Below are positions 40,839 through 44,390 of a stretch of DNA of 64,000 bases, piece after piece. The stretch comes from Escherichia coli (GTDB lineage: Bacteria; Pseudomonadota; Gammaproteobacteria; Enterobacterales; Enterobacteriaceae). The stretch's first letter is position 1, and each line of letters starts with the position of its first letter. The position numbers and the translations under genes are program-made. The notes under the pieces are model-generated. The model was given only the letters and a program-made list of their open reading frames with translations, did not search any database and had not been told where the DNA came from. The stretch lies in the NCBI RefSeq assembly GCF_050920415.1, contig NZ_CP169309.1, one strand, 5' to 3'.

Positions 40839-41885
40839 ATGAGTCAGAAAAATTTTGTGGAACTGCGCAACGTCACTAAACGATTCGGCAGTAATACGGT
40901 TATCGACAATATCAATCTCACCATCCCACAAGGGCAAATGGTGACGCTGCTCGGTCCTTCCGGATGCGGCAAAACCACCATTCTGCGTCTGGTTGCCGGG
41001 CTGGAAAAACCGAGCGAAGGGCAAATTTTTATAGATGGCGAAGATGTCACGCATCGTTCCATTCAGCAACGCGATATCTGCATGGTGTTTCAGTCATACG
41101 CTCTGTTCCCACATATGTCGCTGGGCGAAAACGTTGGCTATGGGCTGAAAATGCTTGGCGTGTCGCGTAGTGAAGTGAAGCAGCGGGTGAAAGATGCGCT
41201 AGCAATGGTGGATCTGGAAGGATTCGAAGACCGCTATGTCGACCAGATTTCCGGTGGTCAGCAACAGCGTGTGGCTCTGGCCCGTGCGTTGATCCTTAAG
41301 CCTAAAGTGCTGCTGTTTGATGAGCCGTTAAGTAACCTCGATGCCAACCTGCGTCGCAGCATGCGCGATAAAATCCGCGAGCTGCAAAAGCAATTTAACA
41401 TCACTTCGCTCTATGTGACTCACGATCAAAGTGAAGCTTTCGCGGTGTCCGACACCGTGTTGGTGATGAATAAAGGTCACATCATGCAGATTGGTTCACC
41501 GCAGGATCTCTATCGTCAGCCCGCCTCCCGCTTTATGGCAAGTTTTATGGGCGACGCCAACCTGTTCCCGGCGAACTTTAGCGAAGAGTATGTCGATATC
41601 TACGGTTATCGCCTGCCGCGCGCGGCGCATTTCCCGGCGCAAGGTAGCGGCACCGTCGGCGTTCGCCCGGAAGCCATCACCTTAAGCAATCACGGCGAAG
41701 AGAGTCAGCGTTGTGTTATTCGCCATGTCGCCTACATGGGGCCGCAGTACGAAGTGACCGTAGAATGGCATGGTCAGGAGATTTTATTGCAAGTCAACGC
41801 CACCCGTTTACAGCCCGATATTGGTGAGCACTATTACCTCGAAATCCATCCTTACGGGATGTTTGTTTTAGCGGATGCGGCATAA
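40839..41885 (+). CDS. ABC transporter ATPase (AfuC/FbpC-like, about 348 aa)
   Basis: Walker [25 protein letters not shown] signature, Walker B LLFDEP, C-terminal TOBE-like domain; GGAG RBS before this ATG (alternative ATG at 40827). Confidence 0.9.
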
Positions 41886-41897
41886 AAATAGCAGATA

Positions 41898-41926
41898 AAC
41901 GGTCCCAACCTGTCTTGAGGGACCGT
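41898..41926 (+). terminator. Putative terminator after the ABC transporter operon
   Basis: AACGGTCCC-loop-GGGACCGTT hairpin 13 nt after the stop; weak T tract. Confidence 0.4.
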
Positions 41927-41967
41927 TCACCTGTTTAAACGTCGGACAACAATTATTCTCCGGCGTT

Positions 41968-42020
41968 ATATACTATAGGGGGGTATGCATTGACATATAG
42001 CATACCCCCCTATAGTATAT
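41968..42020. promoter_or_regulatory. frmRAB operator-promoter: 20-bp perfect inverted repeat with G6/C6 tracts flanking a TTGACA -35
   Basis: ATATACTATAGGGGGGTATG - 13 bp - CATACCCCCCTATAGTATAT; TTGACA at 41990-41995 and TAGTAT -10 in the right arm; matches the RcnR/FrmR-type TACT-G6-N-AGTA operator class. Confidence 0.75.
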
Positions 42021-42044
42021 TGCGTGCAGATGATGAGGTGCGAA

Positions 42045-42320
42045 ATGCCCAGTACTCCGGAAGAGAAGAAAAAGGTCCTTACTCGAGTTCGTCGTATTCG
42101 GGGGCAAATTGATGCTCTGGAACGGTCGCTGGAGGGTGATGCCGAATGCCGTGCCATACTCCAACAGATCGCTGCCGTTCGGGGCGCGGCTAACGGGCTG
42201 ATGGCAGAAGTGCTTGAAAGCCATATCCGGGAAACGTTTGACCGAAATGACTGCTACAGCCGCGAAGTCAGCCAATCCGTTGACGACACTATTGAACTGG
42301 TTCGTGCCTATCTTAAATAG
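42045..42320 (+). CDS. frmR: Formaldehyde-responsive repressor FrmR (91 aa)
   Basis: Translation [30 protein letters not shown]... (CsoR/RcnR family). Confidence 0.93.
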
Positions 42321-42324
42321 CTGA

Positions 42325-43464
<1,140 letters not shown>

Positions 43465-43556: not shown

Positions 43557-44390
43557 ATGGAACTCATTGAAAAACATGCCAGCTTTGGCGGCTGGCAAAA
43601 TGTGTATCGGCATTATTCCCAATCACTGAAATGTGAAATGAATGTCGGCGTCTATCTCCCACCAAAAGCCGGGAATGAAAAATTGCCGGTACTGTACTGG
43701 CTTTCGGGCCTGACCTGTAACGAGCAGAATTTCATTACTAAATCGGGGATGCAACGTTACGCGGCTGAGCACAACATTATTGTTGTTGCGCCAGACACCA
43801 GTCCGCGAGGCAGTCATGTCGCAGATGCCGACCGTTACGATCTCGGACAAGGTGCCGGGTTTTACCTGAACGCAACGCAAGCGCCGTGGAATGAACATTA
43901 CAAAATGTATGATTATATCCACAACGAGCTGCCGGATTTAGTGATGCAACATTTTCCGGCAACGGAAAGAAAGTCAATCGCGGGTCATTCAATGGGCGGG
44001 CTGGGCGCGCTGGTGCTGGCGTTACGTAACCCAGATGAATATGTCAGCGTCTCGGCGTTTTCGCCCATTGTCTCCCCATCGCAAGTACCGTGGGGACAGC
44101 AAGCCTTTACCGCATATCTTGGTGAAAATAAAGATGCCTGGTTGGATTACGATCCGGTGAGTCTTATTTCACAAGGTCAACGCGTTGCGGAAATCATGGT
44201 TGATCAGGGGTTGAGTGATGATTTTTACGCAGAACAGCTGCGGACTCCAAATCTTGAAAAGATCTGCCAGGAGATGAATATCAAAACGTTAATCCGTTAT
44301 CACGAGGGTTATGATCACAGCTATTATTTTGTCTCCAGTTTTATTGGCGAGCATATTGCCTACCACGCCAATAAACTGAATATGCGTTGA
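43557..44390 (+). CDS. frmB: S-formylglutathione hydrolase FrmB (277 aa)
   Basis: Esterase D family; GHSMGG nucleophile elbow. Confidence 0.93.
   Translation: MELIEKHASFGGWQNVYRHYSQSLKCEMNVGVYLPPKAGNEKLPVLYWLSGLTCNEQNFITKSGMQRYAAEHNIIVVAPDTSPRGSHVADADRYDLGQGAGFYLNATQAPWNEHYKMYDYIHNELPDLVMQHFPATERKSIAGHSMGGLGALVLALRNPDEYVSVSAFSPIVSPSQVPWGQQAFTAYLGENKDAWLDYDPVSLISQGQRVAEIMVDQGLSDDFYAEQLRTPNLEKICQEMNIKTLIRYHEGYDHSYYFVSSFIGEHIAYHANKLNMR

Follow-up and report, generated by a model that had tools for sequence, protein, structure and literature searches.

A 53-bp palindrome in the Escherichia coli frmRAB control region read as two opposed FrmR operator sites astride the -35 element

The window analysed here, a 64-kb stretch of Escherichia coli DNA (contig NZ_CP169309.1), carries on its plus strand frmR (42045–42320; 91 aa, the autoregulated repressor), frmA (42355–43464; S-(hydroxymethyl)glutathione dehydrogenase) and frmB/fghA (43557–44390; S-formylglutathione hydrolase). 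FrmR scored 189 bits (cut-off 133) for NCBIfam NF008464, an equivalog family named “formaldehyde-responsive transcriptional repressor FrmR”, and the two enzymes matched TIGR02818 (743 bits) and TIGR02821 (398 bits), the three reading frames assigned in this way being listed as 42045–42317, 42355–43461 and 43557–44387. The annotated gene order is fbpC, frmR, frmA, fghA, yaiL, mhpT, and the locus is annotated in E. coli as frmR-frmA-fghA. These families and annotations place frmR, frmA and frmB directly downstream of the segment discussed below and confirm an earlier reading, made from the sequence only, of that segment as the frmRAB control region. The region was found in 5,415 of 5,426 complete E. 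coli genomes and is 100% identical in strain MFDS1022581.

We place the frmR start at the ATG at 42045 rather than at the in-frame GTG at 42024 because Pro2 (MPSTPEE...) is the formaldehyde-reactive sensor residue; the functional N-terminus must be Met1-Pro2, encoded from 42045. The GTG and two further ATG codons (42030 and 42033) precede this true start in frame, and a mechanical open reading frame call accordingly gives 98 aa. A Shine-Dalgarno-like GAGGTG (42035–42040, plus strand) lies 4 nt 5′ of the ATG, and GAGGT is kept in enterobacterial loci.

Upstream of frmR lies an unstranded inverted repeat of 53 bp (41968–42020), with perfect 21-nt arms at 41968–41988 (ATATACTATAGGGGGGTATGC) and 42000–42020 (GCATACCCCCCTATAGTATAT) around an 11-nt spacer (ATTGACATATA). 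A repeat finder gave 100% complementarity between the arms, so that asymmetry is confined to the spacer, which contains the -35 element, and 24 nt separate the right arm from the frmR ATG. The element had been described as 20-bp arms separated by 13 bp, which is the same structure one pair short. It includes a G6 tract (41978–41983) and a C6 tract (42005–42010); of the TACT/AGTA flanks ascribed to these tracts, the outer one does read TACT/AGTA and the inner one reads GGTA/TACC.

Among perfect inverted repeats whose arms lie ≤ 30 nt apart, none in the window is longer than this one. When the window was shuffled 20 times with dinucleotides preserved, perfect arms peaked at 9–12 nt, against 21 nt observed. 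The palindrome is real, far exceeding what chance would produce. As a single strand it would form a 21-bp stem with a ΔG of -23.5 kcal/mol (z = -8.0 against shuffles). An Rfam search of 41800–42150 at E ≤ 1 returned sub-threshold hairpin matches only (tsr25, scoring 38 bits where 63 were required, and two miRNA precursors), and an RNA element was rejected.

The runner-up perfect inverted repeat in the 64-kb window is a terminator-like hairpin with 16-nt arms at 20286–20318 (AAATGCCCAATAAC-T-GTTATTGGGCATTT); with A and T runs on its flanks, it has the appearance of a standard intrinsic terminator acting in both directions. Nearer to frmR, just 3′ of the fbpC stop, an imperfect 15-nt inverted repeat at 41892–41933 (CAGATAAACGGTCCC / GGGACCGTTCACCTG, 87% complementary, without a T-run) may be a transcript-end hairpin of the upstream operon. 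Homology to most E. coli genomes begins at ~41953, 15 bp 5′ of the palindrome, which sets the frm operator at the very edge of a variable region. The sequence upstream here holds a uhpC-like gene and an ABC transporter cluster that includes fbpC, where K-12 has yaiO.

The spacer contains a consensus -35 hexamer, TTGACA (41990–41995, plus strand), and a -10 hexamer, TAGTAT (42013–42018, plus strand), follows at 17 bp, inside the right arm. A consensus scan found TTGACA-17-TAGTAT to agree at 10 of 12 positions, with a spacing within the 16–18 bp of sigma-70 promoters, and to be the sole sigma-70-like match in 41700–42400. Both hexamers stand where the sequence-only reading had put them, and the accompanying distance of 25 nt to frmR holds approximately, since TAGTAT ends 26 nt and the right arm 24 nt from the ATG.

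An alternative -10, TATAGT (42011–42016, plus strand), sits at 15-bp spacing. TATAGT is the hexamer found at 17 bp from the -35 in most relatives that carry two repressor sites; the gap in Escherichia is 2 bp shorter, which brings TAGTAT to 17 bp and leaves TATAGT at 15 bp. Denby et al. (2016; Sci Rep 6:38879, PMC5146963) centred the inverted repeat at -29, which would put the transcription start site (TSS) near 42023 and fit TATAGT, whereas TAGTAT predicts a start at ~42025. The TSS is termed “predicted” in that study, and our literature search returned nothing usable on an experimentally mapped frmR TSS. We therefore treat the exact TSS and -10 as predictions and keep TAGTAT and TATAGT as alternatives, 2 nt apart in the start that they imply.

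Each arm of the palindrome is a complete FrmR site with its own ATAC/GTAT dyad, and the two sites are oppositely oriented. The distal site, ATAC-TATAGGGGG-GTAT, occupies 41970–41986 and stops 3 bp short of the -35; the proximal site, ATAC-CCCCCTATA-GTAT, occupies 42002–42018, spans the promoter spacer and the -10, and contains both candidate -10 hexamers. Neither site is assigned a strand. Their centres are 32 bp apart, and they are the only two matches to ATAC-N9-GTAT in the window. Under the definition of Denby et al. (PMC5146963), a type I operator of the CsoR/RcnR (DUF156) family has a G/C tract of 3–8 bp within an AT-rich inverted repeat. The G6 and C6 tracts lie inside the dyads here, the distal site as in Fig. 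6a of that paper. The cognate repressor gene adjoins, and the two sites bracket TTGACA-17-TAGTAT, as is characteristic of DUF156 operators.

The palindrome had been likened to the operators of RcnR/FrmR-family repressors. That assignment stands for type I architecture in its FrmR variant, ATAC-N9-GTAT; it does not extend to the exact RcnR motif, and the arms are full sites, not half-sites. The RcnR paradigm consists of two TACT-G6-N-AGTA sites (PMC7055735), which neither arm matches within 3 mismatches, the inner flank being GGTA rather than AGTA, and the exact motif was rejected. The frm sites share with the RcnR operator of the rcnR-rcnA intergenic region a DUF156 repressor, tandem type I sites, a G6 tract in an AT-rich dyad and the TACT-N7-AGTA dyad spacing. 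The RcnR operator is that of Iwig & Chivers (2009). The frm sites differ in that their G tract is off-centre and runs into the flank (TACT-ATAGGGG-GGTA), in that they flank one unidirectional promoter whereas the RcnR sites lie in a divergent intergenic region, and in responding to formaldehyde instead of Ni/Co. The frm sites act like an RcnR site without being one.

The closest known system is the same locus and element in E. coli K-12, where Denby et al. (2016, PMC5146963) interpreted the large inverted repeat of Pfrm as a tandem of type I FrmR sites, with an ATAC/GTAT dyad, around the -35. K-12 Pfrm differs from the present sequence in carrying A at 42001, which leaves 19-nt arms plus a mismatch in place of perfect 21-nt arms, and in lying downstream of yaiO instead of the fbpC cluster. 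The same study measured a Kd of ~220 nM for FrmR on a Pfrm PCR fragment, against ~3600 nM on unrelated promoter DNA (BLItz), and reported that formaldehyde dissociates FrmR from Pfrm and that FrmR inhibits frmRAB transcription in vitro, reversibly with formaldehyde (PMC5146963). The prediction that repressor binding occludes RNA polymerase agrees with these findings, occlusion being the accepted mechanism. Denby et al. (2016) thus already described the palindrome, with its two type I sites, and the mechanism of occlusion, and we do not present them as new.

The orthologous repressor of Salmonella Typhimurium likewise binds at frmRA a C6 tract with a flanking T/A-rich inverted repeat, at ~100 nM, and mutation of one flank abolishes binding (Osman 2015/2016; PMC4528141, PMC5016687). 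The Salmonella operator is described as a single site, and its 33-bp probe takes up two FrmR tetramers (PMC4528141, PMC5016687), whereas the two E. coli sites make up a 53-bp palindrome. In a 2024 biosensor study, J23100 came under FrmR-dependent repression once ATAC-N9-GTAT had been inserted 5′ of its -35 and in its -35/-10 spacer (PMC11127321). In one reporter study, a truncated native PfrmR was no longer repressed although it retained both sites (PMC11127321), which implies that flanking DNA or repressor dosage matters too.

We compared 80 frmR loci, one genome per species, from gamma-, beta- and alpha-proteobacteria (Escherichia to Brucella/Ochrobactrum, Comamonadaceae and Xanthomonadales), searching 130 nt upstream of frmR for ATAC-N9-GTAT with at most one mismatch in the eight specified bases. 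The motif was present in 69 of the 80 loci, with an exact copy in ~64, against a chance expectation of ~0.002 per 130-nt region; conservation 5′ of frmR orthologues is what a FrmR operator should display. The frmR relatives share the fuller consensus ATACT-N7-AGTAT, and frmA lies downstream of frmR in 76 of the 80 loci. The proximal site was 27–51 nt from the start codon in ~52 of the 69 site-bearing loci; it lay 12–33 nt upstream in most Comamonadaceae and Xanthomonadales loci, and up to 57 nt in loci L057 and L080. Counted as they stand, the matches number one in 41 loci, two in 28 and three in one; several of the extra matches are one-mismatch hits far upstream or overlapping with the proximal site, and hence not independent second sites.

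Two-site loci were found in Escherichia, Providencia, Serratia, Erwinia, Aeromonas, Deefgea and a plasmid-type frm cluster (Edwardsiella, Enterobacter, Morganella and Pantoea). All 14 of those examined share one layout, in which the distal site is followed after 2 or 3 nt by TTGAC, a variable stretch and the proximal site over the -10. Twelve of the 14 have TTGAC at one and the same offset after the distal site, the others having TTGAT (Aeromonas) and TTGCA (Deefgea), and the start-to-start spacing of the paired sites is 32–35 bp. Pasteurellaceae, Tatumella, Brucella/Ochrobactrum and Comamonadaceae have a single site only. The widespread unit is the promoter-proximal site over the -10; among the loci sampled, the distal site is confined to Enterobacterales, Aeromonas and Deefgea.

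Rohlhill (2017), in a sort-seq analysis of Pfrm, is said to describe in the abstract two 19-bp repressor sites, one 5′ of the -35 and one over the -10, an arrangement that would fit the anatomy of the palindrome found here.

Three loci from unrelated genera, a Citrobacter freundii MAG (L006), Klebsiella grimontii (L009) and Maribrevibacterium harenarium (L011), share a 91%-identical frmR homologue and a near-identical upstream region, with ATACTCCGATGCAGTAT as the proximal site. In none of the three was a frmA homologue detected within 2 kb 3′ of the frmR homologue. In the Citrobacter locus, the one of the three whose open reading frames were read, a 383-aa frame ~690 bp downstream resembles, by eye, an iron-containing alcohol dehydrogenase. 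Such sharing of sequence points to a mobile cassette.

The sequence-only reading had singled out how perfect the symmetry is. The arms are indeed beyond chance and the longest in the window; function does not need perfection, as the K-12 mismatch at 42001, E. albertii and Erwinia illustrate. In E. coli, Escherichia sp. E1V33, Escherichia sp. MOD1-EC7003 and E. whittamii, one site core is an exact inverted copy of the other, and the same is true of three plasmid-type loci (L008, L010 and L018), there with a different sequence, GTGGAG/CTCCAC. The two cores of E. albertii, Providencia, Edwardsiella, Aeromonas and Serratia depart from such identity at 1–4 positions. The sites of Erwinia endophytica (L016; ATACTGGGATATAGTAT and ATACTGGTGTATAGTAT, 79–30 nt 5′ of frmR) are direct repeats, with 2 mismatches in direct against 7 in inverted alignment, from which it follows that the large palindrome is dispensable.

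Within E. coli, the identical 53 bp occur in 3,554 of 5,135 matching records (~69%). K-12 MG1655 has A at 42001 where this strain has C; outgroups have C, and the perfect form is therefore ancestral and C42001A derived. Other arm polymorphisms are G41978C, G41979A and C41988G in strain 06-00048, C42010A in E110019 and G42000T in HN68, and natural E. coli changes reach both the G6 and the C6 tract. A 2026 paper on methenamine/formaldehyde resistance does not mention promoter or operator mutations. Given the many single-site taxa and the direct repeats in one Erwinia, the palindrome is best read as a by-product of two opposed sites, not as a hairpin that must pair; its hairpin potential follows from the inverted arrangement of the sites, and the large palindrome itself is under no strict constraint.

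We consider it very probable that the 53-bp palindrome is the operator-promoter of an autoregulated frmRAB operon, with two full, opposed FrmR type I sites astride the -35 and repression released by formaldehyde. Our own data cover the motif, where it lies over the core promoter and how far it is conserved; the literature shows that FrmR binds a Pfrm fragment, that formaldehyde releases it and that repression occurs in vitro and in vivo. When formaldehyde is absent, FrmR tetramers would occupy both sites, one per ATAC-N9-GTAT, through putative nucleotide-level contacts. The uptake of two tetramers by the single-site Salmonella probe makes this stoichiometry on E. coli DNA a model only. The proximal tetramer (42002–42018), covering the promoter spacer and the -10, would sterically bar sigma region 2, RNA polymerase binding and open-complex formation. 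The distal tetramer (41970–41986), beside the -35, probably contributes extra occupancy, cooperativity or DNA wrapping. Formaldehyde joins Pro2 and Cys35 of neighbouring subunits by a methylene bridge, which alters the DNA-binding surface; FrmR is released, and frmR-frmA-frmB is transcribed. Since frmR is first in the operon, the circuit would be a negative autoregulatory loop.

A different use of the same repressor, in which the arms are half-sites of one large operator and a single FrmR assembly reads the long-range symmetry, strikes us as very improbable. The 21-nt perfect symmetry of most E. coli would suit it, as would the plasmid-type loci, whose arms are perfect with a different, covarying sequence (GTGGAG/CTCCAC). 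Each arm nevertheless contains its own ATAC/GTAT dyad, and one site is enough in Pasteurellaceae, Tatumella, Brucella/Ochrobactrum and Comamonadaceae, and for Salmonella FrmR in vitro. The spacing of paired sites is also variable (32–35 bp), their orientation may be direct, and the symmetry is broken in natural E. coli variants.

Hardly more or less probable is a latent invertible promoter, in which recombination between the arms or template switching would flip the spacer and redirect the promoter away from frmRAB. A -10-like hexamer is present in each symmetric arm. E. coli FJ_Ec_21 (NZ_CP143627.1, L086) carries an inversion of the 15 bp that the 19-bp perfect arms enclose in the K-12-type allele (GGTAT-TCTATATGTCAATGC-ATACC, corresponding to 41987–42001 of the window). 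The arms being symmetric, this flip points the whole TTGACA-17-TAGTAT away from frmR; a weaker promoter candidate (9 of 12 positions) is kept on the frmR side. The inversion was seen in 1 of 5,426 E. coli genomes, the next-best matches (95.2%) being normal-orientation alleles aligned with gaps. It may reflect inversion via the inverted repeat, template switching or an assembly artefact, and is a curiosity that does not amount to evidence of a switch. Were the flip recurrent and selected, it would amount to a recombinase-independent on/off switch for formaldehyde detoxification, and template switching would also account for arm identity beyond the protein-contact core.

Somewhat less credible still is a primary role in nucleic-acid structure, in which the functional form would be a DNA cruciform, or an RNA hairpin acting as a terminator or insulator of upstream read-through, and the protein sites would be secondary. 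The 21-bp stem and its stability (ΔG -23.5 kcal/mol, z = -8.0) invite this explanation, as does the co-oriented fbpC, which ends at 41885. A terminator scan, however, called none at the palindrome, no T-run follows the stem, and the palindrome lies 5′ of the predicted TSS. Across taxa, conservation attaches to the dyad within each site and not to arm-to-arm pairing: single sites occur in many taxa, the arms carry 1–4 mismatches in E. albertii, Providencia and Serratia, and the Erwinia endophytica sites are direct repeats. The gene upstream also varies by E. coli strain (fbpC here, yaiO in K-12). That the palindrome is a terminal inverted repeat or remnant of a MITE- or REP-like mobile or repeated element, beside frmR by accident, might be proposed from the loss of homology with most E. 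coli at ~41953, ~15 bp upstream, and is refuted by copy number, with a median of one place per genome in 5,134–5,364 genomes, always at frmR, and by retention of the motif at frmR across classes of Proteobacteria.

The operator-promoter reading adds nothing to FrmR biology, and the sites are already in use in synthetic-biology formaldehyde biosensors; what it illustrates is that a genuine operator-promoter can be recognised from sequence alone. The comparative data offer a small refinement, in which the proximal site is widespread, the distal site limited in distribution and the palindrome without strict constraint.
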